Assembly (NCBI GenBank): GCA_964573185.1
Contig: CAZNIQ010000021.1
Coordinates: 1-12,766, forward strand
Reading direction: 5' to 3'
Length of the DNA: 12,766 nt
DNA from: Candidatus Woesearchaeota archaeon
Lineage (GTDB): Archaea > Nanobdellota > Nanobdellia > Nanobdellales > CAZNIQ01
The notes beneath the pieces are model-generated. The model made no database searches. It was not told where the DNA came from and was given only the letters and a program-made list of their open reading frames with translations. The position numbers and the translations under genes are program-made. Below, one piece after another: positions 1-12,766 of this stretch; the first letter of the stretch is position 1, and each line of letters begins with the position of its first letter.

Positions 1-2
1 TT

Positions 3-164
3 GGAACAGAATTAAAGCCAGAGGACCATTTAGTTTCATTATATTTTATTGTAAAACTTAAAAAGGGTGATTTTAAAAAAGTAGATTATGAAGAAATTTA
101 TAAGGAATTGGTTGAGAAAGGAATAATTACTCCTGATATAGGAGATGAAATATATAAGCATTGA
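3..164 (+). CDS. 3' end of an upstream CDS (53 codons plus stop). Function is not assignable. By position it could be an archaellum accessory gene preceding flaH.
   Basis: Frame 3 is open from the window edge: GTELKPEDHLVSLYFIVKLKKGDFKKVDYEEIYKELVEKGIITPDIGDEIYKH, with stop TGA at 162-164. It overlaps the flaH ATG (145) by 20 nt. It is absent from the ORF track because its start lies outside the window. I recognise no motif. Confidence 0.4.
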   Translation, partial: GTELKPEDHLVSLYFIVKLKKGDFKKVDYEEIYKELVEKGIITPDIGDEIYKH

Positions 165-834
165 AATAGACAGGGACGATCTGAATCAAAAATTAGGAGG
201 AGGGATACCTAGAGGTAGTTTAATGATTATTGAAGGTCCAGATGGAACAGGAAAATCAGTTTTATCTCAAAGAATAACGTATGGCGCTTTAGCTAATGGT
301 TCTTCTGTAACCTATATTTCTACAGAGCTTTCTACGTGGGATTTCTTAAAACAGATGAATTCATTAAACTATATAATTGATAATTATTTATTTAATGGTA
401 AATTATTGTTTTTAACATTAGTTCCTTTGTATGCCGATATTGAAGAAGGAGAAAATCTTATATTTAAATTAGAAGAATCGCCCCAACTTTTTGAAAGGGA
501 TATTCTTATAATAGATTCATTATCTTATCCTTTAGTATCGGAATTGTCATATAAAGAAGTTAAAGAGCTAGTTATGTTTTTAAATAAGGTAAAAGACGAT
601 AAAATAATTATTCTAACATATGATCCTGAATCGATTGATCAGAAATTGGTAAAAGAACTAAGGAGAATTGCAGATATATATTTTAAGTTAAAAATAGGTT
701 CCATTGCTGGTCAAAGAGTGAGATTTATCGAGATAGAAAGATTTAGAAACGCCCTAGATACCTACACACCAGTTATACCCTTCAGAGTTGAGCCTAAATT
801 AGGATTCGTTATAGAAATAGTATCAGTAGTATGA
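145..834 (+). CDS. flaH: Archaellum accessory ATPase FlaH/ArlH (KaiC/RecA-like, single domain)
   Basis: 229 aa. The N-terminus LGGGIPRGSLMIIEGPDGTGKSVLSQRITYG is the typical FlaH/KaiC-like opening with Walker A GPDGTGKS. A Walker-B-like hydrophobic strand ends in Asp (ILIIDSLS). Its stop overlaps the flaI ATG (ATGA at 831-834), which implies co-translation with the FlaI homologue. Confidence 0.85.
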   Translation: MKYISIEIDRDDLNQKLGGGIPRGSLMIIEGPDGTGKSVLSQRITYGALANGSSVTYISTELSTWDFLKQMNSLNYIIDNYLFNGKLLFLTLVPLYADIEEGENLIFKLEESPQLFERDILIIDSLSYPLVSELSYKEVKELVMFLNKVKDDKIIILTYDPESIDQKLVKELRRIADIYFKLKIGSIAGQRVRFIEIERFRNALDTYTPVIPFRVEPKLGFVIEIVSVV

Positions 835-3800
835 GGTTAAATCCTAAAAAAGCAAAAGTATTTATTGAAGAGAAAACAACAGATTTTCAAGAAGCTTTAA
901 GAAGATATCCGCATTTAAGAGAATACGTTCAGAAGGTTTCAGCAGAGTTAGGGATGCCAGATTGGAAAGTAGAATTAACAAGGGATCTTAGAGAAATAAA
1001 ATATCCAAATATAATTTATCCAGTAGGTGACCCAATTTTTATACATATTTATAGGAAACCGGGTGAGCCTGTGAAGTACTATGCCATAGAACCTCAATTG
1101 AATGCAAAAGAAAAAGAATTATTTAACAAAATAATGGATAAAATAACGCAAGCGGCAGTAAATCTACCTGTACCAAAATCAAAAGAAGATTTATACAATA
1201 ATCTTATAACATTATTTGAGAAATTCGTAGTTCCAAAAGATAAAGCTTCTGTAATAGATAGGCTAACAAAGATTGTAGTTCCAAGGGAAACTTATGACAA
1301 ACTTAGGTATTATTTAATTAGAGAGAGAATTGGATATGGAAAGCTAGAACCCTTGTTAAGAGATCCTTACCTTGAAGATATTCATGTTTTAGGTATAGGT
1401 CCTATCTGGGTTACACATAAGATTTGGGGTACTATGCAAACAAATTTGGCCTTCTGGGATGAAAAAGAGCTGAATAAATATATTATAAAAATGTCTGAAT
1501 TAGTAGAGCGTCCAGTCTCAGACGCAAGACCTATTGTTGACGCTATAATGCCTGATGGTTCTAGAGTTAATTTTATTTACGGTAAAGACATTTCTTTAAA
1601 AGGTTCTTCATTTACAATAAGAAAATTTACTAAAAAGCCTATATCAATAACTCAGTTAATTGCTTGGAATACCATGTCTGCAGAGGAAGCTGCTTATTTA
1701 TGGTTAGCAATAGAACACGGAATGAATATATTTGTAATCGGTGAAACAGCATCTGGAAAATCCGTTGCAGGGTATGAAAAAACTTTAGTGATATTTGATG
1801 ATAGAGTTGAATTGTTAAGTTTTGACGAACTATGGAAAAAATGGAATAAAAAAGAAATTAAGATAGGGAATTTTGTAGGAAAGAGGACCTGTTTCAAAAT
1901 ATATTCAATTGATGGCATAGATAAACCTATCTTACTTTTAAAACACGATTCCCCAGAGTATTTATATGTTATTGAAACTATAGGAGGAAGAAAGGTAACT
2001 GTAACCCCAGATCATTCCTTATTTGTATTAGATGGAGAAATAGGGGAAATAAAAGTTAAAAAACCAACAGAATTAAAGAAAAAAGATTATCTAATTTCCA
2101 TAAGAAGGTTAAAGCTTCCCGAGAAAAAGTTATCCAAAGAGGAAATAATAAAAATAATCGGAAATTCAAGATATAGGGATAAAATAAAAATTGAAAATGA
2201 TTATTTAGTATGTGGAAGTGGAAAAGTAAAGATAGATTATATAAACTCTGAAAAATTTGCATTTTTGTTTGGTATATTCATAGCTGAAGGAACATTTGAT
2301 CATAAAGGTGTTAAAATATTTAATAAAGATGAAAAAGTAATTAAAACTATAGAATCTTTTGCAAAAGATTTAGGTTTCCATGTAAAAATAGTTAAACCAA
2401 AGAATAGAGTTCCATATGTATTTCTTGGAAAACTTGCTGAATATTTATTCAAAATTTTTGGTTATGAAAAGAAAAGAATTCCATGGATCTTCTGGACAAT
2501 GCCAAAAGAATGGAAAAAAGCATTCTTAAGAGGTTTATTTACAGGAGATGGTGCTGTTACTGATAGAGGCGTTGAGATAGTAACTAGAGATAAAGATTTA
2601 GCAGATGATTTGATTTATGCTTTATCAACTTTCGGAATTTTTGCTTCTAAATATGAAAAGAAAATTAATGGAAAAACTTATTATAGAATTGAGATATCAC
2701 GATACTGGTTAGAAGAATTCTTAGAAATAGGTTTCCTTCAAGAGGAAAAAAATGAAAGAATAAGAAAATTAATAGAAAAGCAAGATTATTTTAGATCGGA
2801 GCACGATATTATTCCAAATGTTTTACTGAAAAAATACTGGAAAGAAATTGAAAAGTATTCAAAATTATCCGGAGATATATTTAGAAAAATTGGAATTTAC
2901 AATGGGAGAAATATAAGTAGAAAGCCACTAAGAAAATTATTAGAAAAAGTGGATCCTGAAAAGAAATTATTGAAGAACTTATGGTCATTAGTTGAATCTA
3001 ACTTACTATTTTTAAAAATAAGAAAAATAGAAAAAATAAAAAGTGATTCTAAGTATGTTTATGATTTTGAAGTTCCAGGATCACAAAGCTTCTTAGCAGG
3101 AGATTTAATTATAGTTCATAATACAACAACATTGAATGCACTAACTGTTTTCATTAGACCAGATTGGAAAGTTTATTCTGTTGAGGACACTCCTGAGGTA
3201 AATATTCCGCATCCAGTATGGCAAAGAACTGTTACCAGAGAAGCTGGAAAGCAAACAGATGTTGAGATGTATGATTTGTTAAAAGCTGCCTTAAGATCTA
3301 GACCTAATTATATAATAGTTGGGGAAATACGTGGTAAAGAAGCTTATGTAGCGTTTCAAGCGATGCAGTGTGTAAAAGATGCTCAAGTAGTTTTAGGAGA
3401 TGATGTTAAAAGTATAAAAGAGATATTTGAAGAATATAAAAAGAAATATAGAAGTAAGAGTATTGATGGAAAAGAAATAGTTGAAATAAAGGAAAATTTG
3501 GAGATTCCCGCTTTTGATCCAAATATAGGATTAACTAAAGCAAGGGTTAAGGCTATTTTGAAGATGCCTAAAAGCAGGTTAATTAAAGTTGTTTTAGAAG
3601 ATGGAAACGTATTTGAAGTAACCCCAAATCACAAATTTATAACTCGTTATGGCGAAATCGAAGCTAGAAATCTAAAAGAGGGATTAAAAATAATAACATT
3701 TAATGATAAATTATCAAAAATAAAGGAGGTAGAAATTGTTGAAATAAAAAAAGTAAATAAAGATAATACATATGATTTGTTATTAGAAGGGGCCAAATAT

Positions 3801-4316
3801 TATATAGGCTTTACAGATGGTAATCCTATTCCCTTAGAAGATACGGGACACCCTGTGCTAAGCACTATGCACGCAGGATCAGTCAGGCAGTTAATTGAAA
3901 GACTTACGGGACCCCCGATGAATGTTCCAATAACTTTTATAGATAACTTAAATATAGTTGTTTTGCAAGGAACAGTTTTCATCAAAGGAAACATGGAAAG
4001 AAGAGTGTTATCTATAACAGAAATAGAGAGATATATACCTGAAATAAATAGAATAGCTACAAGAGAAGTTTTTGTCTGGGATAAATTAAAGGATAAACAT
4101 GTTTTTAGAGGAAAATACAATTCTTATATTTTAGAATATAAAATAGCTCCAATGATGAGATTAAAGGATAGGAGAAAAATATATGAAATATTGGAGTTAA
4201 GGAAAAGGATTTTGGAAAGAATGGTAGAGGAAAAGATATTTGATTTCTTCGAAGTATGGAATGTTATAAGAAGATTCTATGAATATGGAATAGAAGGCTT
4301 GCCTTTCAGCTTATAA
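831..4316 (+). CDS. flaI: Archaellum motor ATPase FlaI/ArlI (type II/IV secretion NTPase superfamily), precursor containing two inteins. The predicted spliced product is 549 aa.
   Basis: The 1161-aa ORF has exteins at 831-1760 (310 aa), 3123-3368 (82 aa) and 3843-4313 (157 aa). Joining them restores Walker A GETASGK/TTTLNAL, the Asp-box/Walker B PNYIIVGEIRGKEAYVAFQAMQ, and the His-box /TGHPVLSTMHAGS. It lies immediately downstream of flaH and overlaps it. Confidence 0.9.
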   Translation: MRLNPKKAKVFIEEKTTDFQEALRRYPHLREYVQKVSAELGMPDWKVELTRDLREIKYPNIIYPVGDPIFIHIYRKPGEPVKYYAIEPQLNAKEKELFNKIMDKITQAAVNLPVPKSKEDLYNNLITLFEKFVVPKDKASVIDRLTKIVVPRETYDKLRYYLIRERIGYGKLEPLLRDPYLEDIHVLGIGPIWVTHKIWGTMQTNLAFWDEKELNKYIIKMSELVERPVSDARPIVDAIMPDGSRVNFIYGKDISLKGSSFTIRKFTKKPISITQLIAWNTMSAEEAAYLWLAIEHGMNIFVIGETASGKSVAGYEKTLVIFDDRVELLSFDELWKKWNKKEIKIGNFVGKRTCFKIYSIDGIDKPILLLKHDSPEYLYVIETIGGRKVTVTPDHSLFVLDGEIGEIKVKKPTELKKKDYLISIRRLKLPEKKLSKEEIIKIIGNSRYRDKIKIENDYLVCGSGKVKIDYINSEKFAFLFGIFIAEGTFDHKGVKIFNKDEKVIKTIESFAKDLGFHVKIVKPKNRVPYVFLGKLAEYLFKIFGYEKKRIPWIFWTMPKEWKKAFLRGLFTGDGAVTDRGVEIVTRDKDLADDLIYALSTFGIFASKYEKKINGKTYYRIEISRYWLEEFLEIGFLQEEKNERIRKLIEKQDYFRSEHDIIPNVLLKKYWKEIEKYSKLSGDIFRKIGIYNGRNISRKPLRKLLEKVDPEKKLLKNLWSLVESNLLFLKIRKIEKIKSDSKYVYDFEVPGSQSFLAGDLIIVHNTTTLNALTVFIRPDWKVYSVEDTPEVNIPHPVWQRTVTREAGKQTDVEMYDLLKAALRSRPNYIIVGEIRGKEAYVAFQAMQCVKDAQVVLGDDVKSIKEIFEEYKKKYRSKSIDGKEIVEIKENLEIPAFDPNIGLTKARVKAILKMPKSRLIKVVLEDGNVFEVTPNHKFITRYGEIEARNLKEGLKIITFNDKLSKIKEVEIVEIKKVNKDNTYDLLLEGAKYYIGFTDGNPIPLEDTGHPVLSTMHAGSVRQLIERLTGPPMNVPITFIDNLNIVVLQGTVFIKGNMERRVLSITEIERYIPEINRIATREVFVWDKLKDKHVFRGKYNSYILEYKIAPMMRLKDRRKIYEILELRKRILERMVEEKIFDFFEVWNVIRRFYEYGIEGLPFSL
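1761..3122 (+). mobile_element. Intein 1: full-length intein (454 aa) with a LAGLIDADG homing endonuclease domain, inserted in the FlaI P-loop
   Basis: It starts with Ser (SVAGYEKTLVIFDD, block A-like). Block B is VTVTPDHSLF (TxxH). The two LAGLIDADG motifs are FAFLFGIFIAEGT (about 2262-2294) and AFLRGLFTGDGA (about 2520-2555). Blocks F/G are YVYDFEVPGSQSFLAGDLIIVHN, followed by Thr at +1. Removing it gives GETASGKTTTLNAL. Confidence 0.85.
3369..3842 (+). mobile_element. Intein 2: mini-intein (158 aa, no endonuclease domain) inserted just before the FlaI His-box, with an atypical C-terminus ...PLED
   Basis: It starts with Cys (CVKDAQVVLGDD, block A-like). Block B is VTPNHKF. The block F-like stretch is NTYDLLLEGAKYYIGF. 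The block G position reads TDGNPIPLED and is followed by Thr at +1. Removing it gives FQAMQ/TGHPVLSTMHA, the usual FlaI/GspE-family His-box context. Confidence 0.7.
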
Positions 4317-5010
4317 GCTTTAGATATAATTCTTGAAAATCTAGTTTTAATCCTAATTTGTTAAAAAATCTTACAATATTTTGTAAATCCTTTTTTAAAT
4401 ATTCTAACGCGTTATGTGCGTGTATTGGTAAAGCTTGAGAAACATCTATTATTACAGGTCTTTCTTTAAAATTTAATATATTGAATTCTGATAAATCTCC
4501 ATGAACTAATTCTGCTTTTTTAATCATTTTTTCTATATTTTTCCAAAGTTTATCCCAAAATTTTTTAGGATCTTCCGGATATTTATCTTTTAATAAAGGA
4601 GCTGGAACTCCTTTTTCTCCAATAAATTCCATCACTAGGACATTTCTGTAAAAAGCTATTGGCATAGGAACTCTAACTCCAGCTTGGTACATTTTATTCA
4701 AATTTCTGAATTCTTTCTTAACCCATTCCAAAACTATTGCAACTCTCGATTTCTGAACGCCATGAAATCTTGGATCTTCAATTAATTTTTCATACATCCT
4801 CTTGTAGTCTTTAACCATTACTTTGTATATTTTTACTGCAACATATTCTCCTGTTTTGTCTATTCCTAAAAAAACTGAAGCTTCTTTTCCTATTGAAATT
4901 GGAGATAAAATATCTTTGAGATAACCAGAATTAACTAATTTATCTATTGCTCTAATAGTGCTTAAATCAAAAACGTCCTGATAAACTTTCCATAATTCTC
5001 TATACCTCAC
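4306..5010 (-). CDS. rio1: RIO-type serine protein kinase, Rio1 class (no N-terminal wHTH of Rio2)
   Basis: 234 aa. The flexible/ATP loop is SPISIGKEASVF, followed by VAVKIYK (Lys), the catalytic loop LVHGDLSEFNIL and the metal-binding IDVSQA. The start codon is GTG at 5010-5008, overlapping the aCPSF1 TGA stop (GTGA). The 3' end overlaps the flaI 3' end by 11 nt. Confidence 0.85.
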   Translation of the reverse strand: MRYRELWKVYQDVFDLSTIRAIDKLVNSGYLKDILSPISIGKEASVFLGIDKTGEYVAVKIYKVMVKDYKRMYEKLIEDPRFHGVQKSRVAIVLEWVKKEFRNLNKMYQAGVRVPMPIAFYRNVLVMEFIGEKGVPAPLLKDKYPEDPKKFWDKLWKNIEKMIKKAELVHGDLSEFNILNFKERPVIIDVSQALPIHAHNALEYLKKDLQNIVRFFNKLGLKLDFQELYLKLIS

Positions 5011-6890
5011 CTTAACCTAATAGCGTCAAGATTTTTCGGAACATAAACATTCACATTTATATTTTGCTTTTTATACAAAGATTTTATTCCAGATGCTAGT
5101 TCAAATGGTTTTGGGGGTTCTCCATGAACTATTACTACATTTTTTGGCTTTGGATTTAACTTTGATACAAACTTCAATAGTTCTTTCCTATCGGCATGTC
5201 CAGAAAAACCTTCAAACCTTTGAACTTTTAATCTAACTTTTACTAACTCCCCATTAATATTTACTTCCTTTGCACCATCTAAAATCAACCTTCCAAGAGT
5301 TCCTCTCGCTTGGTAAGATACAAAAGCTAATAAGTTCCTTGGATCCTCTGCTCCTAATCTAAAGTAATCTACAATTGGACCTCCATTCATCATACCTGAA
5401 GTTGCTATTATTATTGCAGGTTTGTTCTCATTCATTATATTTTCTCTATCTTTCGGAGAAGCCCTATATATGAATTCTGCTTCAAAGGGATTCTCTCCCC
5501 TTTCAATTTCTTCTTTTAACTCTTTGCTTAAAAATTCTGGATAAGCAGTATGAATCATAGTAGTTTCCCAAAGAACTCCTTCAAGATACACATCTACTGG
5601 GGGTAATATTCCTTGTTTTACAGCATCTATAATTAATAGTAAGATTTCTTGAGCTCTTCCGACAGCTAAAACAGGTATTAAAACTTTTCCCCCTTCAGAT
5701 AATGTTTCCTTTACTGCTTCCAAGAATTTCTTTTCAGTTTCTTCTCTAGAAGGGTGTATATCGTTTTTTCCACCATATGTGCTTTCCATAATCACTGTTT
5801 CTAACCTTGGAAATATTGTTTTTGGAGGATCTAATAACCTTGTTTTGGAAAACTTGAAATCACCTGTATACAAAATATTATGCAAGCCATTCCCTATATT
5901 CAGGTGTACCATTGCAGAACCTAAAATATGACCCGCATTATGAAATGTAATTTTTATATCTGGTGTAATATCAGTTACTTCTCCGTAATTTAAAGTTATA
6001 GTGTGTTTTAACATTTCACGAATTTCTGAAGAAGAATATAATGATTGCTTGTTTTGTTGCTCCGAAACTTTGATATAATCTAGGCATACCAAAGCAGCTA
6101 AATCTCTTGTTGGCTCTGTCATATAAACAGGGCCTTTCCAGCCTAATTTAAATAAAAAAGGTAGCAATCCAACGTGATCCAAATGTGCATGAGTTATTAT
6201 TACTGCATCTAATTTTTGTATATCGAATTCAGGAGCATCTAAATGTGGAAAAGCGTCTGGACCTGTGTTATTTACACCTATTCCAAAATCTAAAAGAACA
6301 TTTGATTCCGGGGTTTGCAAGAGAATAGCAGATCTCCCCACTTCTTGTCCAGCTCCCAAAATACTTATTCTAACCCACTTTCTTTTAGATTTCGTTCCCC
6401 AACCAGCAACAATTTTTTCTCCAACTTTATGTAACAATTTTTTTCTTTCTTCAGAGACAGAATATAAATAAGCTCTTATAGCATCTATAATCTTTGAACT
6501 CTGTATAGGAGCCCTCTTAACTTTCGGTATCAATAATGTTTCTTCTTTTATCTTTTCTAATATTTCATCTGTGATTTTCTCAGGTCTTAAACATTCTATT
6601 ATTACTATACTTCTAGCTCTCTCGATATAGATGTTTCTTAATTCCGCTTCCTTTGGAACTATTTTTTCAATCCTTTCTTTTATAACATCATCTTCTGGTA
6701 AAAGATTTGGATCTATTCTAATTTCAAATCTTTTTTTAAATTCCTTAGCTAATTTAGCACCAATTTCCTTTCCTTTAAGAAATAGTTCTTTATCTTTAAC
6801 ATAAATTACAATTAAAGGTCCTTCGAAAACTACTTCAGAGACTTTATCCTTCGGTAGTTTCTTAAGTATTTCTTCTTGTATTCGCAACAT
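5007..6890 (-). CDS. aCPSF1: aCPSF1 (FttA-type) RNA-processing/termination nuclease: N-terminal KH domains plus metallo-beta-lactamase and beta-CASP domains
   Basis: 627 aa. The roughly 170-aa KH-like N-terminus is followed by ISILGAGQEVGRSAILL, the MBL motif VIITHAHLDHVG (HxHxDH), ESTYGG, and C-terminal GFSGHAD and VHGE motifs typical of beta-CASP enzymes. It sits next to psmB, a gene pairing I recall from Methanocaldococcus and Methanothermobacter. Confidence 0.9.
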   Translation of the reverse strand: MLRIQEEILKKLPKDKVSEVVFEGPLIVIYVKDKELFLKGKEIGAKLAKEFKKRFEIRIDPNLLPEDDVIKERIEKIVPKEAELRNIYIERARSIVIIECLRPEKITDEILEKIKEETLLIPKVKRAPIQSSKIIDAIRAYLYSVSEERKKLLHKVGEKIVAGWGTKSKRKWVRISILGAGQEVGRSAILLQTPESNVLLDFGIGVNNTGPDAFPHLDAPEFDIQKLDAVIITHAHLDHVGLLPFLFKLGWKGPVYMTEPTRDLAALVCLDYIKVSEQQNKQSLYSSSEIREMLKHTITLNYGEVTDITPDIKITFHNAGHILGSAMVHLNIGNGLHNILYTGDFKFSKTRLLDPPKTIFPRLETVIMESTYGGKNDIHPSREETEKKFLEAVKETLSEGGKVLIPVLAVGRAQEILLLIIDAVKQGILPPVDVYLEGVLWETTMIHTAYPEFLSKELKEEIERGENPFEAEFIYRASPKDRENIMNENKPAIIIATSGMMNGGPIVDYFRLGAEDPRNLLAFVSYQARGTLGRLILDGAKEVNINGELVKVRLKVQRFEGFSGHADRKELLKFVSKLNPKPKNVVIVHGEPPKPFELASGIKSLYKKQNINVNVYVPKNLDAIRLR

Positions 6891-6904
6891 TTTAGAAAAC
6901 GTAA

Positions 6905-6930
6905 TTATTTAAATAAGTAAAATTTAAAAA
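6905..6930 (-). promoter_or_regulatory. Candidate TATA/BRE region for aCPSF1
   Basis: The 45-nt AT-only spacer between the psmB stop (6936) and the aCPSF1 ATG (6890) holds a palindromic TTATTTAAATAA (6905-6916) and TTTTTAAA on the minus strand (6923-6930). Either box could place a transcription start at or just upstream of the ATG. There is no experimental support. Confidence 0.3.
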
Positions 6931-6935
6931 ATTAA

Positions 6936-7562
6936 TTAAGTCTCGATGATTTCCTTTATTGGGATATACTCTCTTTCTACACCCTTATCTGAAATGCTCA
7001 CTATTTCTATTCCATCACCTGAACCAGCATCCCTTTTAATTGCGGCATAAACCGCTTTCTTAGCCAATTCTTTTGCCTCTTCTAGAGTAAGATTCTCTTT
7101 ATAATTAGCTTCTAGAACTCCTAATGCAAACATCATTCCAGAACCTTCAGCGTAATATTTTTTCTCTTCAATTACAGAACCTATTGGATCCAGAACATAT
7201 AAGTTCCAGCTACCATTATCTTTTCCGGCGACTATCAAAGCTACCATATATGATGTAAAGTAAAATCTTTTAGAATATAATATCGTAGCTAAAAGGTTTG
7301 CAGCTTCTTTTGCAGTAGGCTCCTTTCCACTTCTTAGTTGTTTTAATGTTAATTCGGCTTTTAATACTTTTGCTAAAACTTGTAGATCTGCAACAACACC
7401 AGCAGCAGCTAAAGCAATTTTATCTGTAATTTGATATATCTTTTGAGCGGATTTACTTGCTATTATGAAATATTCTGTTGCTCTCTTATCAGAAGCTAAG
7501 ACCACTCCATCTTTTGCAACAATACCAACAATGGTAGTACCAGTCTTAAAAACTTTCTCCAT
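6936..7562 (-). CDS. psmB: 20S proteasome beta subunit (Ntn hydrolase) with a short propeptide
   Basis: 208 aa. MEKVFKTG/TTIVGIVAKDGVVLASDKRAT carries the propeptide-Gly-Thr1 junction, with Asp17 and Lys33 equivalents (SDKR ... SAQKI). The later GSG motifs are typical of proteasome beta subunits. Confidence 0.9.
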   Translation of the reverse strand: MEKVFKTGTTIVGIVAKDGVVLASDKRATEYFIIASKSAQKIYQITDKIALAAAGVVADLQVLAKVLKAELTLKQLRSGKEPTAKEAANLLATILYSKRFYFTSYMVALIVAGKDNGSWNLYVLDPIGSVIEEKKYYAEGSGMMFALGVLEANYKENLTLEEAKELAKKAVYAAIKRDAGSGDGIEIVSISDKGVEREYIPIKEIIET

Positions 7563-7591
7563 TTATCTTTAGATATAAAAAAAGATAAAAA

Positions 7592-8656
7592 CTATTTGCT
7601 AACGAAAAGAGCTTCTATCTTAGGTATAACATAATAAATGTATTTATTCCCTTCCCTTCTCCTTTTTACTAATCCCATATCCATTAATCTCTTAAGAATA
7701 TTGTTCACTGCTCTCAAAGCGTTTTGCCTATCTTTATATTCTGATAAGTCAATGTATTTTAGTATGTCTGAAGTTGCCAATGGACCTTTTGTAGCTAGAA
7801 TCTCTAGTATCTTTCTTTGTTTTGGTGTTAATGAATCCAAGATTCTAAATATATCTTCTTTTGTTCTAAACTTCTCAAAAACAGCCTCTTCCACAACAGT
7901 GTGATCTATTTCCTTTATATTATTTCTAAAAGCATACTCACAAACTTTTGCCGCGATCTTTAAAACTTCCCTTGGCAAACCTCCAGTAATCTCGTGTATC
8001 TTGCTTATAGCTTCTTCCGTAAAGGGTTTTATCCCGTCTCCTCCAGCCTTTTCTATTCTCTTTTTAATTAGCAAATAAACTTCTGTTCTCGATAAAGATC
8101 CTAAAGATACCTTTGTTGTTACCCTTTCATATAAAGTTGTTAGGTTTTCTTTTACGAAGTTTTCAAAATGTGGTAATGCTGCAAAAATAATAGAAACTTT
8201 TTCTATTTGATCTGAAAAAACTCTTAACCATTCTAGAACATCAACATTTGTTTCATGTGCCTCATCAATCAATAAAACTAAATGTCTTCCTTGAAGCTTA
8301 GAATTCACATATTTATGAAGATTATATATAGTTGGCTTTCCTTTAAGAATTCTTTCAAAGAGAGACATTGGGAATTGCTCCAAGAATATATCTCTAAATT
8401 CAAATTTATCCTTAGGCGGTTTAACTAAGTACATCAAGATCTTATTTTCATTTCTATAGTTCTTTAATAAATATTGTAATAGGGTTGTTTTTCCAGATCC
8501 GGTAGGTCCTAAAAGCAAAGCTACTCTTTCCTCTTCATCAATGAAGTTTTTTAATTCGTTTACTTGATTTTCATACCCTACAAATGTATCGGGATCGACT
8601 TTCAATGAAAAGGGATTCTCTTTCCAACCAAAATACTCATAAAAGGTTTTAGCCAT
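7592..8656 (-). CDS. ExeA-like (AAA_22 type) P-loop ATPase with a C-terminal winged-helix DNA-binding domain. Function is unknown.
   Basis: 354 aa. The N-terminal YFGWKENPFS matches the ExeA-family Y-F-G-L-x-E-x-P-F opening. Other matches are Walker A LLGPTGSGKTTLLQYL, Walker B LVLLIDEAHE followed by VLEWLRVFSD, and LSRTEVYLLIKKRIEKAG. The C-terminal LTPKQRKILEILATKGPLATSDILKYI ... LKRLMDMGLVKRRREGNKYIYY looks like a MarR/TrmB-type wHTH. Confidence 0.7.
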   Translation of the reverse strand: MAKTFYEYFGWKENPFSLKVDPDTFVGYENQVNELKNFIDEEERVALLLGPTGSGKTTLLQYLLKNYRNENKILMYLVKPPKDKFEFRDIFLEQFPMSLFERILKGKPTIYNLHKYVNSKLQGRHLVLLIDEAHETNVDVLEWLRVFSDQIEKVSIIFAALPHFENFVKENLTTLYERVTTKVSLGSLSRTEVYLLIKKRIEKAGGDGIKPFTEEAISKIHEITGGLPREVLKIAAKVCEYAFRNNIKEIDHTVVEEAVFEKFRTKEDIFRILDSLTPKQRKILEILATKGPLATSDILKYIDLSEYKDRQNALRAVNNILKRLMDMGLVKRRREGNKYIYYVIPKIEALFVSK

Positions 8657-8669
8657 AAATATATGTGAA

Positions 8670-9743
8670 ATGAAAATGAACTTAAAATTAACTTCACGTG
8701 CAGATTTATATCTTGTTCACGGAAAGGTACCTCATTATCATGAAATGGTTAACCTATCTAGATACATCCTTAAATTAATGATAGAAGATTTAGGATTGGA
8801 TGAAACGGTACGAAGGTTTTCAAATGCAGCATGGTTTCAATGTTTAGCTTCAGTTTTAGGAATGGAATGGTATACTTCTGGTTCTACCACTGTTGTTTTT
8901 AAAGCTCTAAAAGAAGCTTCAATAAAAGAAAATTTACCTATTAAGTTTTTAGGGGGAAAAGGCAAAGATGCAATAAATATTCAAAAAGAAATAGAAAAAT
9001 ATGATCTAGATGGGAAATTTAAAGAAATATCAATAATTACTGTTAAAACTGATAATGCGTTAATACAAGACTCTTTTCAAATATATTTTCACGGAATGAT
9101 TATTGGAGAGAAGGAATATGTTGTTATAAATCAAGGAATGAATGAAAAGGAAAGATTAGTTAGAAGATATCATTGGTTAAGTCCAGAAGATTTTAGAGAA
9201 GATCATTTTAAATCAGAAACTAATAAAGTTACTTTAAATTTAGCACACAGGAAAATAGAGGAAACGAGAAAAGCTATTCTGGATTTATTACAAGAGCCCA
9301 TTGAAAGAATACAAAGATACTTTATTACGGTAAAAAATACTTTGGAAAATAGGACGTTATCTGAATATTTTGAGAACATAAAAATTATAAGGTTACCATA
9401 TTACCTTAAGCTCCCTAAAAAGTTAGATTTAAAAGTAATTGAGAAAGCAAGAGAAGTTATAGAGTTTAAGGAGTTGCTTAAAATAAAAGGATTGGGTCCA
9501 GCAACTTTTAGAGCATTAGCATTAATAGCTTCAATAATTTATGGAGAGCCTTTATATTGGGAAAAACCTGAAATATATTCTTATGCGCACGGAACAAAAT
9601 CTGGAAAACCATACTTTGTTAACAAGAAACTAATGTTAGAAAGCGCTGAAATCCTTAAAGAAATAATAGAAAAACTTCCTAAAGAATATAGAGTAAAAGC
9701 AATGAGAAGATTGGCAAGAACTACTGGGGCCGCCGGGATTTGA
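8670..9743 (+). CDS. DUF763-family protein with a helix-hairpin-helix motif near the C-terminus. Function is unknown.
   Basis: 357 aa. From memory, the N-terminal ADLYLVHGKVPHY ... RRFSNAAWFQCLASVLGMEWYTSGSTTVVFKALKE resembles the conserved DUF763 core (LPLHxGxxP ... WFQ ... DWHSSG-TT ... LKE). IKGLGPATFRALALIA is HhH-like. The last 19 nt overlap the 3' end of the convergent tRNA gene. Confidence 0.65.
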   Translation: MKMNLKLTSRADLYLVHGKVPHYHEMVNLSRYILKLMIEDLGLDETVRRFSNAAWFQCLASVLGMEWYTSGSTTVVFKALKEASIKENLPIKFLGGKGKDAINIQKEIEKYDLDGKFKEISIITVKTDNALIQDSFQIYFHGMIIGEKEYVVINQGMNEKERLVRRYHWLSPEDFREDHFKSETNKVTLNLAHRKIEETRKAILDLLQEPIERIQRYFITVKNTLENRTLSEYFENIKIIRLPYYLKLPKKLDLKVIEKAREVIEFKELLKIKGLGPATFRALALIASIIYGEPLYWEKPEIYSYAHGTKSGKPYFVNKKLMLESAEILKEIIEKLPKEYRVKAMRRLARTTGAAGI

Positions 9744-9830
9744 ACCCGGGACCTCCCGGTCTTCAGCTTCGCCACGGGTAAGGTGCGCCCTTACCCGTAC
9801 GGGCGCTCTCCCGGGCTGAGCTACGGCCCC
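9725..9830 (-). tRNA. tRNA-Phe (anticodon GAA) with a 32-nt intron at non-canonical position 30/31. No CCA is encoded.
   Basis: The minus-strand read is GGGGCCG TA GCTC AGCCCGGGA GAGC G CCCG[intron]G CTGAAGA CCGGG AGGTC CCGGG TTCAAAT CCCGG CGGCCCC A. The acceptor stem has 7 bp, the T arm 5 bp, the D arm 4 bp and the spliced anticodon stem (CCCGG/CCGGG) 5 bp. All of them pair perfectly. The anticodon loop is C-U-GAA-G-A. The mature length is 74 nt with 55 G+C by my hand count. Confidence 0.9.
9768..9799 (-). other. tRNA intron (32 nt) bounded by a bulge-helix-bulge splicing motif
   Basis: The intron is TACGGGTAAGGGCGCACCTTACCCGTGGCGAA. Exon CGCC pairs with intron GGCG to form the 4-bp central helix. 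It is flanked by the 3-nt bulges CG|T and AA|G, and both cleavage sites fall after the second bulge nucleotide. The intron also forms a perfect 10-bp hairpin, ACGGGTAAGG/CCTTACCCGT, with loop GCGCA. Confidence 0.85.
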
Positions 9831-9856
9831 GCTAAAGATTTATTTCTTAGAAAGAA

Positions 9857-9864
9857 ATTTTAAA
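9857..9864 (-). promoter_or_regulatory. Candidate TATA box (TTTAAAAT, preceded by a purine-rich CAAAA BRE-like stretch) for tRNA-Phe
   Basis: On the minus strand TTTAAAAT lies 27-34 nt upstream of tRNA nucleotide +1 (9830). That is the spacing expected for an archaeal promoter giving a very short 5' leader. Confidence 0.45.
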
Positions 9865-9868
9865 TTTT

Positions 9869-9916
9869 GTGATGAAAGGACCGAACGCTGAATATGATGA
9901 GGGAATATTAATCTGA
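9869..9916 (+). ncRNA. C/D box sRNA (guide for 2'-O-methylation) with two 12-nt guides
   Basis: The element order is C box GTGATGA (9869-9875), a 12-nt guide AAGGACCGAACG (9876-9887), D' box CTGA (9888-9891), 2 nt, C' box ATGATGA (9894-9900), a 12-nt guide GGGAATATTAAT (9901-9912), and D box CTGA (9913-9916). All four boxes are perfect and both spacers are exactly 12 nt, which is the canonical archaeal architecture. I see no obvious terminal stem. Confidence 0.75.
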
Positions 9917-10639
9917 TCCGTATAAAAACCTTGCAAGATTCTTTTGTATAATTTTTTTCAATTTATCTATTGGAACGCTCTTTACTTTCGAAATATACTC
10001 CAATGTCAATTCTATTAAACTTGGAGAGAGCTTTAGACCTCTATAATCATAAGGACCATCTGATTCTGTTAGTATATTTTTTAAATCTGCTTTTTTAAGA
10101 ACCTCTTGATGTTTCTTCTGTATTCTAATTGCAGGATTTATTCCAATAAAATACCCTTTTTCTTGAATTTCTTCTAATAAATCTAAAGGTCCAGTATACC
10201 AGTGAAAATAAGCTTTCTTTATATCATATTTCAACAATAAATCAAAAACGTCCCTCCAAGCATCCGGAGCATGAAGATTTAAAGCTAAATCATATTCCTT
10301 AGCTAGCTCTAAAAAATACTTAAAGAATTCCAATTGTTTATCAAATGTTTCAGGAACAAATTTTTTATCTAACCCTATTTCTCCTAAAACTGAAATTTCA
10401 TATTTTTCAACTAACTTTTTTATCTTTTCAAGATCTTCTTTTGAATGCTTATGGACTTCCCATGGATGGATTCCAACAGCAGGAATAATATGTTCATATA
10501 ATAAAGAGAGATGAATTGTTTTATAAGAAGAAGAGATATCATCTGAAACTGCTAACAAAATATATTTATCTTTAGGCCATCTTCTCAATTCAGTTTTTTC
10601 ATATTCATACAAATGCACATGTGCATCTACAATCTTCAT
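9908..10639 (-). CDS. tatD: TatD-family metal-dependent hydrolase/DNase
   Basis: 243 aa. The N-terminus MKIVDAHVHL carries the HxH metal site. Other matches are GIHPW, the GEIGLD motif, LNLHAPDA (His), YFHWYTG (His) and LTESDGPY (Asp). Together these cover the usual TatD amidohydrolase-fold ligand pattern. The ATG overlaps the upstream gene's TGA (ATGA at 10636-10639). Confidence 0.85.
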   Translation of the reverse strand: MKIVDAHVHLYEYEKTELRRWPKDKYILLAVSDDISSSYKTIHLSLLYEHIIPAVGIHPWEVHKHSKEDLEKIKKLVEKYEISVLGEIGLDKKFVPETFDKQLEFFKYFLELAKEYDLALNLHAPDAWRDVFDLLLKYDIKKAYFHWYTGPLDLLEEIQEKGYFIGINPAIRIQKKHQEVLKKADLKNILTESDGPYDYRGLKLSPSLIELTLEYISKVKSVPIDKLKKIIQKNLARFLYGSD

Positions 10640-12681
10640 TTAACTATTAGCTTAGTTACTATTAAAGAAATTACTGCTAAAGCTATATATGGTAATAAAT
10701 CTGTCATTTTTATACCTATTTTGTTATACATGATATATACTTTTGTAATTCTGTCACCTATCCTAGCGTATATTTCTTTTAAACCGGAAGTCTTAGGAAT
10801 AACACTCCTCACCATATATGTATAACCCGTTAAAGTAATGTTCTCACATTTTTCATATTCATTTCTAATGCCATAACAAATTTTTGTCTTAATTGGTATT
10901 TTCGAACTCATTTCGATTTTAATCAGATAAGGGGGCTCCTTTTTTAACAAAGTTATGTTTAAGCTAATATATCTTGTTGCATTTATAATTTTTATTTTAA
11001 ATATTCTGCTTTCATTCAAAAACCTAAAATAAAAAATGTGGGTTCCCTCTATTGTTGGAACCTTTATCTTTATTATTTTGCTCTCCTTCGGTTTTATTAA
11101 GAACTCCCATTCTCCTAAATCAGAGGAGATATTTAATGTTAGTTCCTTACTTAACATATTGTTCACGCGGAAGTTCACAAAAGTTTCATTAGCTACAGCG
11201 TAAATAGTATCTTGTAAAGGTTGGATAATAACTTTCCCAAATTCCCTTGGAATAACCGTAATCAACACCCATCTCGGTCCATAAGAAACATTTAGGACTA
11301 TTTTATGTTCCGGGATTTTAAAAACTAATTCGTAAGAGTTTTTGCCAATATTTCTTATAATACAACTGTAATTTACTTTTAAATTGTATTTTGGACAAAA
11401 ATTGTTAGTTTTAATATAAACAATTGTTTTTATCGTGCTTTGAGGTGTCCCATATATGGGATTTTCATAGAAGATCTTTATTTCACATTCCCTCTTCTCT
11501 ATTTTAAATGCATATAACCTAGGCACCTTTATAACAATGTATTTTCCTTGTTTGACGTATTTTACTTTTTCCCAACCGGATATGCAGGAATCTCCATAAT
11601 TTTTACAAACAAAGACTTCAAAGAAGTCGAAAGGAGTATACAAATAAACTATAGCTTCTTCAAAAGAGAAGTCTGCGGAAAAGTTATAGATAATAGAGTC
11701 ATTTGTTGATCTTAATTTATAATATAATATCAACTTATCTTTTAATTCTGGCGATAGGAAAACAATAGAGAACTCATCAGTAGATACTACTATTTTTGCT
11801 TCCTCTGGTAACATAAACTTATGTTTTACATCTTTTTTATCATATAGAACTTTTCTTTTGAATTCAACTTTTAAATGATAATCTCTATCAAACCCTTCTA
11901 TCCAAAAAGTTGAATTCACAGTATTTATAACACGAACTATTTTACTTTCATTCAAAATCCTTATTATAAGTTTTCCAGGATGTTTTGGGCAATATCTTAT
12001 ACTCCCGCTACCCACAACATTAAAAGTTTCATTATCTATAGTTATATTTACTCTTTCTAGATTAGTTTTGTATGTTATATTGAAACATTCTCCTAAGAAA
12101 ACCTCTTCCGGAACTTCTAATAAAAGAACTTGTGGGTTGTACCTCACATAATAAACTAGAGTTTTATTTATGCACCTAACAGCGTCACAGATTACCCATG
12201 TTATAATATTTCTTCCAACATTTATATTATCTGGAGAAATTCTGTTTCCATAAAATATTTTTCCATTTACGATCGCATATATTTTTGTTATCCTAAAATC
12301 ATCTTCAGCCTCTATCCAAAATGTATAATTGTTTACTGGCAAACTATTGTTTGAAGGATAGAAACCATAAGAAATTATTTTTGGAGGTTCAGAGTCAATA
12401 CATACATGAAAAGTATCTGTTGCCATTCTTCCCACTAGATCAATTGCCTCAACAGTTATGTTATAGCAACCAGAATCCAATTTTATTTCTTTACAATTAA
12501 AAGCTTCCTTTACAGTATTTAAATAATAATAACAAGCTTTTAAACCAGTATCATCAGAAATATTGAATCTAAGAATGGAAGAAGGTAAAATGGTGTTATT
12601 TTGAAAGTATGGTATTATTTTTGGAGGATGAGTATCTATAACAAGAGTAAATATTCCCAAAGCTAAAAGAAGAGGCAACAT
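10636..12681 (-). CDS. Large secreted, C-terminally membrane-anchored, Cys-rich putative surface glycoprotein with no recognisable family
   Basis: 681 aa. It has an N-terminal hydrophobic signal-like segment (MLPLLLALGIFTLVI) and a C-terminal TM anchor (LLPYIALAVISLIVTKLIV). By my hand count it has 21 N-x-S/T sequons and about 15 Cys. Two consecutive roughly 80-aa modules each start with PPKII (aa 19 and aa 99). The first module ends in an Ig-like-domain-style signature, ITVEAIDLVGRMATDTFHVCID. Its start overlaps the upstream stop (TAATG). Confidence 0.7.
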   Translation of the reverse strand: MLPLLLALGIFTLVIDTHPPKIIPYFQNNTILPSSILRFNISDDTGLKACYYYLNTVKEAFNCKEIKLDSGCYNITVEAIDLVGRMATDTFHVCIDSEPPKIISYGFYPSNNSLPVNNYTFWIEAEDDFRITKIYAIVNGKIFYGNRISPDNINVGRNIITWVICDAVRCINKTLVYYVRYNPQVLLLEVPEEVFLGECFNITYKTNLERVNITIDNETFNVVGSGSIRYCPKHPGKLIIRILNESKIVRVINTVNSTFWIEGFDRDYHLKVEFKRKVLYDKKDVKHKFMLPEEAKIVVSTDEFSIVFLSPELKDKLILYYKLRSTNDSIIYNFSADFSFEEAIVYLYTPFDFFEVFVCKNYGDSCISGWEKVKYVKQGKYIVIKVPRLYAFKIEKRECEIKIFYENPIYGTPQSTIKTIVYIKTNNFCPKYNLKVNYSCIIRNIGKNSYELVFKIPEHKIVLNVSYGPRWVLITVIPREFGKVIIQPLQDTIYAVANETFVNFRVNNMLSKELTLNISSDLGEWEFLIKPKESKIIKIKVPTIEGTHIFYFRFLNESRIFKIKIINATRYISLNITLLKKEPPYLIKIEMSSKIPIKTKICYGIRNEYEKCENITLTGYTYMVRSVIPKTSGLKEIYARIGDRITKVYIMYNKIGIKMTDLLPYIALAVISLIVTKLIVK

Positions 12682-12766
12682 TATATTTCTTTCAATCCTG
12701 CATTTTTAACGATTATTTCTCCCTCATTTTCTTTTACAACTTTTTCAAACTCTATCCATATTCTTT
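12681..12766 (-). CDS. 3' end of an upstream minus-strand CDS (27 codons plus stop), unknown product
   Basis: The minus-strand frame is open from the window edge: RIWIEFEKVVKENEGEIIVKNAGLKEI, with stop TAA at 12683-12681 sharing one nucleotide with the next ATG. It is not in the ORF track because its start is outside the window. Confidence 0.4.
   Translation of the reverse strand, partial: RIWIEFEKVVKENEGEIIVKNAGLKEI

Follow-up and report, generated by a model that had tools for sequence, protein, structure and literature searches.

Introduction

Inteins have already been counted in the ATPase family that includes the motor protein of the archaellum. Table 3 of Novikova et al. (2016; PMC4760082) gives 21 inteins for the archaeal members of COG0630 (VirB11/FlaI), spread over Crenarchaeota, Euryarchaeota and other Archaea, and that paper stresses insertions in the P-loop. 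Other archaeal ATPases carry the KlbA inteins, which are class 2 inteins with Ala1, Ser-Asn and Cys+1 that skip the first acyl shift (PMC4031507). The C-terminal end of inteins also shows variation, since Asp or Gln can stand in for the terminal Asn and still cyclise, and some inteins splice without a penultimate His (PMC4031507; PMC2807308). The present work deals with an arlI (flaI) gene found in a stretch of 12,766 nucleotides (nt) of contig CAZNIQ010000021.1 (positions 1 to 12,766; guanine plus cytosine (GC) content 30.5%), the whole of which is called the window. The gene encodes a 1161-amino-acid (aa) precursor, from which protein splicing very probably excises two inteins and so yields a 549-aa enzyme, a reading to which a probability of about 0.85 can be attached.

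An Archaellum Motor ATPase Gene Interrupted by Two Inteins

A first, sequence-only reading of the window had described the precursor open reading frame (ORF), two putative intein segments and the remainder left by their removal, and all its coordinates and counts proved correct (Table 1). Both segments are in frame, and their deletion in silico leaves exactly 549 aa, in which the Walker A motif GETASGK↓TTTLNAL and the His box FQAMQ↓TGHPVLSTMHA (the arrow marks an insertion point throughout) are both contiguous, as had been claimed; this is far beyond chance. The predicted peptides at the spliced junctions are GETASGK-TTTLNALTVFIR and EAYVAFQAMQ-TGHPVLSTMHAGSVR. A product failing to align colinearly with intein-free FlaI had been named as an outcome that would refute the intein reading. 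The opposite was found, since the 549 aa are colinear with the Sulfolobus acidocaldarius FlaI crystal structure (4II7) across GETASGKTTTLNA and AFQAMQTGH, without any gap at either junction.

The host protein is the archaellum motor ATPase ArlI/FlaI, as first proposed. Alignment of both forms with family profiles, the check suggested at the outset, gives for the spliced product a match of 700.7 bits (E 1.2e-210) to NCBIfam NF058587 'archaellum motor ATPase FlaI', above the equivalog cutoff of 550. This match is one single stretch (residues 31-547 on positions 2-527 of the 527 of the profile), whereas that of the unspliced precursor is broken into three separate stretches. The best PDB match of the spliced product is 4II7 (E 1.9e-129), and GETASGKT, SVEDTPE, IIVGEIRG and TGHPVLSTMHA align with its Walker A, Asp box, Walker B and His box, respectively. 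The best stretch of the Pfam T2SSE match is the middle extein. Furthermore, arlI lies directly downstream of arlH and an arlC/D/E gene. ArlH scores 230.4 bits with NF052589 (cutoff 215) and 234.8 bits with NF006320 (FlaH), and the arlC/D/E-arlH-arlI order is found both in the source contig (L001) and at the loci of two relatives (L028 and L029).

It could be argued that the host is rather a paralogous ATPase of a type IV filament or secretion system (KlbA/VirB11-like), the archaellum then being independent of these inteins. Several FlaI paralogs are indeed encoded by Nanoarchaeota (PMC3655853, Figure 5 legend), and neither arlJ nor an archaellin gene adjoins arlI. However, the next model after NF058587, BasE, reaches only 208 bits for a cutoff of 1000, the best PDB match is a FlaI, and the overlap with arlH and the upstream arlC/D/E are seen in the contig and in both relatives, which makes a paralogous host very improbable.

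The archaellum cluster of L001 (genes at 8612-13486) is reduced to arlC/D/E-arlH-arlI, as are those of L028 and L029. No arlJ, arlF/G or archaellin gene was found on the 30.8-kb source contig, which comes from an ENA metagenome assembly, or at the L028 and L029 loci. This fits the layout of terrestrial Nanoarchaeota, whose arl genes are reported to lie outside any traditional cluster (PMC10117864). Among named genomes, that of 'Nanoarchaeota archaeon YN1' is the closest.

Table 1. Position of the archaellum genes, of the exteins, inteins and motifs of arlI, and of other features of the window.
Feature	Position (nt)	Strand	Basis or remark
arlH/flaH, 229 aa, KaiC-like ATPase partner of ArlI	145..834	+	NF052589, NF006320, PF06745
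arlI/flaI precursor ORF, 1161 aa and stop	831..4316	+	ATG start; NF058587 649.7 bits, three stretches
N-extein, aa 1-310	831..1760	+	aligned to FlaI 4II7; C-terminal Walker A GETASGK at 1740-1760
Intein 1, aa 311-764, 454 aa	1761..3122	+	Pfam, TIGRFAM and PDB intein matches
Intein 1 block B, VTVTPDHSLF	1995..2024	+	TPDH, aa 392-395
Intein 1 first LAGLIDADG motif, FAFLFGIFIAEGT	2256..2294	+	
Intein 1 second LAGLIDADG motif, KAFLRGLFTGDGAV	2517..2558	+	
Intein 1 block F, YVYDFEVPGSQSFLAG	3054..3101	+	YVYDFEV...FLAG
Intein 1 block G, DLIIVHN	3102..3122	+	His763-Asn764, then Thr765 (+1)
Middle extein, aa 765-846, from Thr+1 of Walker A (TTTLNAL) to FQAMQ	3123..3368	+	
Asp box SVEDTPE (middle extein)	3177..3197	+	
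Walker B IIVGEIRG (middle extein)	3312..3335	+	
Intein 2, aa 847-1004, 158 aa, mini-intein without endonuclease	3369..3842	+	TIGR01445, AlphaFold/Foldseek
Intein 2 block B, FEVTPNHKFI	3612..3641	+	TPNH, aa 931-934
Intein 2 block F, TYDLLLEGAKYYIG	3768..3809	+	Asp982 in TYDLL
Intein 2 block G, non-canonical, NPIPLED	3822..3842	+	Glu1003-Asp1004, then Thr1005 (+1)
C-extein, aa 1005-1161 and stop	3843..4316	+	His box TGHPVLSTMHA from Thr+1 at 3843-3875
RIO-kinase ORF, convergent	4306..5010	-	
DUF763 ORF	8670..9743		
Intron-containing tRNA gene	9725..9830	-	Rfam tRNA 50.4 bits
681-aa ORF	10636..12681	-	no Pfam match

Intein 1, a Canonical Intein in the P-Loop

The first insert lies between the Lys and the Thr of the Walker A P-loop (site a, GK↓T). 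It belongs to the canonical class-1 inteins and also contains a LAGLIDADG homing endonuclease. It starts with Ser1 (Ser311, in SVAGYEK) and its block G, with His-Asn followed by Thr+1, is canonical. Both LAGLIDADG motifs retain their acidic residue (IAEG and TGDG). Profile searches agree with these assignments: the insert matches Pfam Intein_splicing (PF14890, E 3.9e-27) and, in two stretches, LAGLIDADG_3 (PF14528, E 1.9e-22), it is above the cutoffs of both TIGRFAM models (TIGR01445, 32.8 bits; TIGR01443, 24.4 bits), and its PDB matches include PI-PkoII and VMA inteins. The GC content of intein 1 (about 0.24-0.29, against about 0.31-0.34 for the exteins) is a weak signal that was not used as evidence.

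Splicing would begin with an N-to-O acyl shift at Ser1, followed by transesterification to Thr+1, cyclisation of Asn764 assisted by His763 and, finally, an O-to-N shift. The endonuclease of intein 1 would cut intein-less arlI alleles near GGTAAA↓ACTACC, the empty site seen in L028, where the allele reads ATTGGTGAGACGGCATCTGGTAAA↓ACTACCACACTAAACGCTTTAACC. Intein 1 probably spreads into intein-less arlI alleles by means of this putative endonuclease activity.

Intein 2, a Mini-Intein with a Glu-Asp End

The second insert separates FQAMQ from TGH in the His box (site b). Its first residue is Cys1 (Cys847, in CVKDAQVV), and it scores 39.2 bits with the N-terminal intein model TIGR01445 (cutoff 24.5). 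An AlphaFold model, computed from 54 rows of exact N- and C-terminal fragments of family members, has a mean predicted local distance difference test (pLDDT) value of 92.3 and a predicted template modelling score (pTM) of 0.85. Compared with the PDB by Foldseek, this model gives 71 matches at E <= 0.001 (best E 4.8e-10); apart from a few BIL/HINT domains that resemble inteins, the best 50 of the 71 are all inteins. Highest ranked are the TFIIB, RadA, VMA and CDC21 mini-inteins, with template modelling (TM) scores of 0.79-0.82. The confidence of the model, joined to these intein matches, indicates that insert 2 is a HINT domain, and on this predicted structure it is a mini-intein of the HINT fold. 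When intein 2 alone served as query, no homologue came up at E <= 0.001, the parent protein included.

The claim that both insertions are inteins, with blocks A, B and F in each, therefore stands, through Pfam and TIGRFAM for insert 1 and through TIGR01445, AlphaFold and Foldseek for insert 2. The sequence-only reading had not mentioned the difference in block G between the two inserts (VHN↓T in the first, LED↓T in the second). This difference bears on the mechanism. In intein 2, a thioester would form at Cys847 and the N-extein would be transferred to Thr1005; since the intein ends in Glu-Asp and not in His-Asn, the last cleavage step would be a self-release via cyclisation of Asp1004, without a penultimate His. 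As Asp is a documented functional substitute for Asn (PMC4031507, PMC2807308), this end is a variant and not a ground for exclusion.

Close Relatives, Empty Sites and Selection

Insertion sites were mapped in 120 homologues from a search with the precursor, by an ungapped scan for the flanking extein peptides. One of them (P0004, locus L028) has exteins 93.8% identical to those of the window protein, an exactly empty site a and a 162-aa intein at site b. Conversely, P0002 and P0003, whose exteins are about 70% identical, carry a 454-aa intein at site a and have an exactly empty site b. Among the 120 homologues, inteins at sites a and b occur together in the window protein only. An assembly chimera was rejected as an explanation, because independent assemblies show each intein at an identical codon position.

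Such presence and absence at single-codon precision argue for inteins and not for accessory domains. Lineage-specific domains lacking intein blocks, which the sequence-only reading had named as what would overturn it, were looked for and not found: P0004 does without insert 1, and P0002 and P0003 without insert 2. The only point in favour of two accessory domains retained in the mature protein is that the precomputed Pfam annotation of many homologues with site-b inserts shows no intein domain. Against it, both inserts have the HINT fold and the intein blocks, their boundaries fall exactly at nucleophiles (Ser or Cys first, Thr next), and the sites are precisely empty in close relatives. Moreover, since the inserts split the P-loop and abut the His box, a permanent domain would disrupt ATP binding. 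This explanation is effectively refuted.

The two inteins do not evolve like their host. Between the window and P0003 (L029), intein 1 is 78.6% identical at the aa level for 70.6% in the exteins, and is thus above its host. Between the window and L028, in contrast, intein 2 evolves faster than the exteins (69.6% identity for 93.8%). The fact that intein 1 is more conserved than its host and absent from the closest relative points to its horizontal acquisition, a rough deduction because synonymous sites are near saturation. Ratios of non-synonymous to synonymous substitution rates (dN/dS) were estimated by the Nei-Gojobori method, against L028 for the exteins and intein 2 and against L029 for intein 1. 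They amount to 0.028 in the exteins, 0.20 in intein 2 and 0.086 in intein 1, whose endonuclease region taken by itself gives 0.095. Although these values are rough, both inteins and the endonuclease of intein 1 are under purifying selection, which is the only indirect sign in favour of splicing.

Frequency of Inteins in ArlI and Families at the His-Box Site

Database homologues carry inteins at exactly site a and at exactly site b. Their frequency was estimated by an unbiased HMMER search of 1.84 billion cluster representatives with the N-extein alone, sites being mapped in the 46 best matches. Of the 36 closest ArlI cluster representatives that could be scored, 15 carry an intein at site b and 21 have this site empty, so that inteins are not rare here. 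The P-loop is occupied less often, and three of the 46 best matches are clear examples. Whether the two insertion sites had already been catalogued was left open by the sequence-only reading. Inteins of COG0630 have been counted before (Table 3 of PMC4760082) and site b is often occupied, as just described, so that these sites are no new ground.

More broadly, the ArlI/T2SSE family has at least five insertion points, all before a Thr (SF↓TVRKF, GE↓TASGK, GK↓TT, ED↓T(P/R)E and MQ↓TGH), as seen among homologues P0027-P0037, P0064 and P0102-P0119. Up to three inteins occur per protein. For example, P0102 (2011 aa) has three large inserts, while P0027, P0030, P0031 and P0037 have two each (GE↓T and MQ↓T). 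The GE↓T inteins start with SVAGGEK or SIARGER, resembling the SVAGYEK start of intein 1, four residues downstream.

Site b holds two unrelated intein families, ten of the 15 inteins mentioned above belonging to a Cys-started family and five to a Ser...HN family. The latter, with a Ser-Val start and an ALHN end, is crenarchaeal in all five cases that have a source organism name. The Cys-started family, to which intein 2 belongs, has 38 members; 37 of them end with Asp and one (P0033) with Asn. Cys1 is found in 37 of the 38, the exception being P0104 (Tyr1), and the terminal Asp is followed by Thr+1 throughout. A sub-alignment of 16 sequences shows no variation at the His of block B or at the Tyr-Asp of block F, and next to none at the Thr of block B. 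Among species-representative genomes, hosts of this family include Nanoarchaeota YN1, Caldisphaera/Acidilobaceae, Ca. Hestiella, Woesearchaeota, Aigarchaeota/Calditenuaceae and Nitrososphaerota. Lengths range from 158 to 684 aa, and divergent LAGLIDADG motifs (LGRLLGDDS, LAGMFDSDG) are readable in the long members, which makes the 158-aa version of the window a derivative whose endonuclease has been lost.

Two members deserve mention. P0033/P0130 ends in Ser-Asn, which suggests an interconversion between Asp and Asn. P0104 is degenerate and looks like a dead copy, as its Cys1 is replaced by Tyr and the TGH of its C-extein by TGA.

The broad and large Asp-terminated family at the His-box site of ArlI, of which the window holds a minimal member, is the only point here that is mildly new. 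A further idea is that the Cys1...Asp↓Thr family at site b is a distinct natural sub-class, whose Asp-mediated last step gates the assembly of the archaellum motor. If so, a slow or condition-dependent last step would act as a post-translational gate, for instance through temperature or through redox via Cys1, and the site-b intein would be more than a selfish passenger. This idea is speculative and rather unlikely to hold.

Proposed Splicing of the Precursor and Weight of the Evidence

In its host, an uncultured hot-spring nanoarchaeote-like archaeon, arlI would be translated as a precursor that is inactive as an ATPase until both inteins leave. Such a precursor could hardly bind or hydrolyse ATP because the Lys and Thr of its P-loop are 454 aa apart and its His box is 158 aa from Walker B. 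An active archaellum motor would thus very probably arise only after two independent splicing events have restored the P-loop and the His box.

Several points weigh against the removal of both inserts by splicing. Intein 2 has neither the penultimate His nor the terminal Asn of the usual C-terminal His-Asn pair. In the same way, intein 2 has no match to the C-terminal intein model TIGR01443, because it ends with Leu-Glu-Asp. In its AlphaFold model, the block formed by the last residues of the intein and a 5-residue C-extein flank is less confident, with a mean pLDDT of 67. Synonymous divergence is high (dS 1.0-2.9), and so both the dN/dS values and the deduction of horizontal transfer are rough. 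Lastly, the 30.8-kb contig is devoid of arlJ and archaellin genes.

Some of these points would also fit a decayed, non-splicing insert 2, leaving the His box interrupted and ArlI either inactive or tolerant of a 158-aa insert: the Glu-Asp end without TIGR01443 match, the loss of the endonuclease and the contig without arlJ or archaellin gene, to which can be added the clearly degenerate family member P0104 (Tyr1, TGA for TGH). However, Cys1, the Thr and His of block B, the Asp of block F and Thr+1 are all intact, and 37 of the 38 members, which range over Nanoarchaeota, Woesearchaeota, Caldisphaera, Aigarchaeota and Nitrososphaerota, have retained the terminal Asp. Splicing is established for inteins that end in Asp (PMC4031507). 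Furthermore, the dN/dS is 0.20 in the intein and 0.028 in the flanking exteins, a constraint on the latter that is unexpected for a dead host. A decayed insert 2 is therefore quite unlikely, and the splicing of both inteins remains the favoured reading.

Other Features of the Window

The genes around arlI are tightly packed, the stop codon of arlH overlapping the start codon of arlI at 831-834 (ATGA). At its other end, arlI shares its final 11 nt (4306-4316) with the convergent RIO-kinase ORF. The latter belongs to a block (RIO kinase, FttA/aCPSF1, proteasome beta, AAA+wHTH and DUF763; 4306-9743) that is inverted as a whole in L028 (8126-13551). One breakpoint of this inverted block falls at the 3' end of arlI, and its other end in the window is located at an intron-containing tRNA gene. 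In L028, two ORFs, one of 204 aa and one of 84 aa, take the place of the single DUF763 ORF.

The tRNA gene, whose GC content is 71% in a window of 30% GC, shares 19 nt with the 3' end of the DUF763 ORF, which is on the other strand. It is read as a tRNA-Phe (anticodon GAA) whose anticodon stem is interrupted at the non-canonical position 30/31 by an intron of 32 nt. A scan of the window with ARAGORN gave no tRNA. The 681-aa ORF has a high content of Asn, Ile, Lys and Tyr; with its hydrophobic N-terminus and its hydrophobic C-terminal segment, it may encode a surface or envelope protein.

Significance and Comparison with Known Inteins

It should be emphasized that inteins are a known type of element and that their situation here is routine. 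The archaellum literature appears to overlook them: no paper dedicated to inteins of FlaI, ArlI or the archaellum was found in text searches, and a long review of archaellation (270,000 characters) does not mention inteins. Intein-bearing ArlI genes are also under-annotated, such genes being called hypothetical or generic ATPases by annotation pipelines. For example, P0006 (Nanoarchaeota archaeon YN1, AP031373.1; L002) is annotated as 'hypothetical protein'. For this protein and for other long site-b inteins, precomputed Pfam lists T2SSE only, and LAGLIDADG motifs are present. The present data can help to annotate ArlI correctly in hot-spring and DPANN genomes. For protein engineering, a naturally small intein from a thermophile that ends in Asp could be of interest, as could a Ser1/Thr+1 intein with two oxygen nucleophiles. 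Furthermore, the 38 natural variants of the Cys-started family (37 ending with Asp, one with Asn) form a set for studying splicing without His-Asn.

The KlbA inteins of Methanocaldococcus and Pyrococcus, invoked as a precedent by the sequence-only reading, are HINT inteins too, in archaeal secretion-type ATPases, but they belong to a different mechanistic class from both inserts (PMC4031507). Membership of class 2 is ruled out by the junctions (Ser1/His/Thr+1 for intein 1 and Cys1/Glu/Thr+1 for intein 2). As KlbA inteins are class 2 by their residues, neither intein is a KlbA orthologue. The KlbA structure 2JMZ, that of a HINT mini-intein, matches the model of intein 2 with a TM score of 0.79 (rank 25), and no match to KlbA was found at the sequence level at E <= 1.

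Compared with the inteins of COG0630 counted by Novikova et al. (PMC4760082), those described here have the same host family and likewise favour ATPase motifs, for instance the P-loop. That tally is given per COG. What distinguishes the window protein is the pairing of GK↓T and MQ↓TGH in one protein, which is absent from the other 119 homologues.

Intein 1 resembles the standard class-1 LAGLIDADG inteins found at the P-loop GK↓T of, for example, DnaB, MCM and RFC (PMC4760082) by its Ser1, its TxxH, the Asp of its block F, its His-Asn and its Thr+1, as well as by its two-motif LAGLIDADG domain and its P-loop insertion point. It differs from them by its host, which is a motility ATPase and not a replication protein, and by its nucleophiles, both of which are oxygens (Ser1 and Thr+1).

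As for intein 2, its closest counterparts in mechanism are the atypical inteins with a C-terminal Asp or Gln (PMC4031507, PMC2807308), since it ends with a cyclisable Asp and lacks the penultimate His. Unlike in the inteins reviewed there, this Asp is not sporadic; it is fixed in 37 of the 38 members of one allelic family that extends over several phyla.

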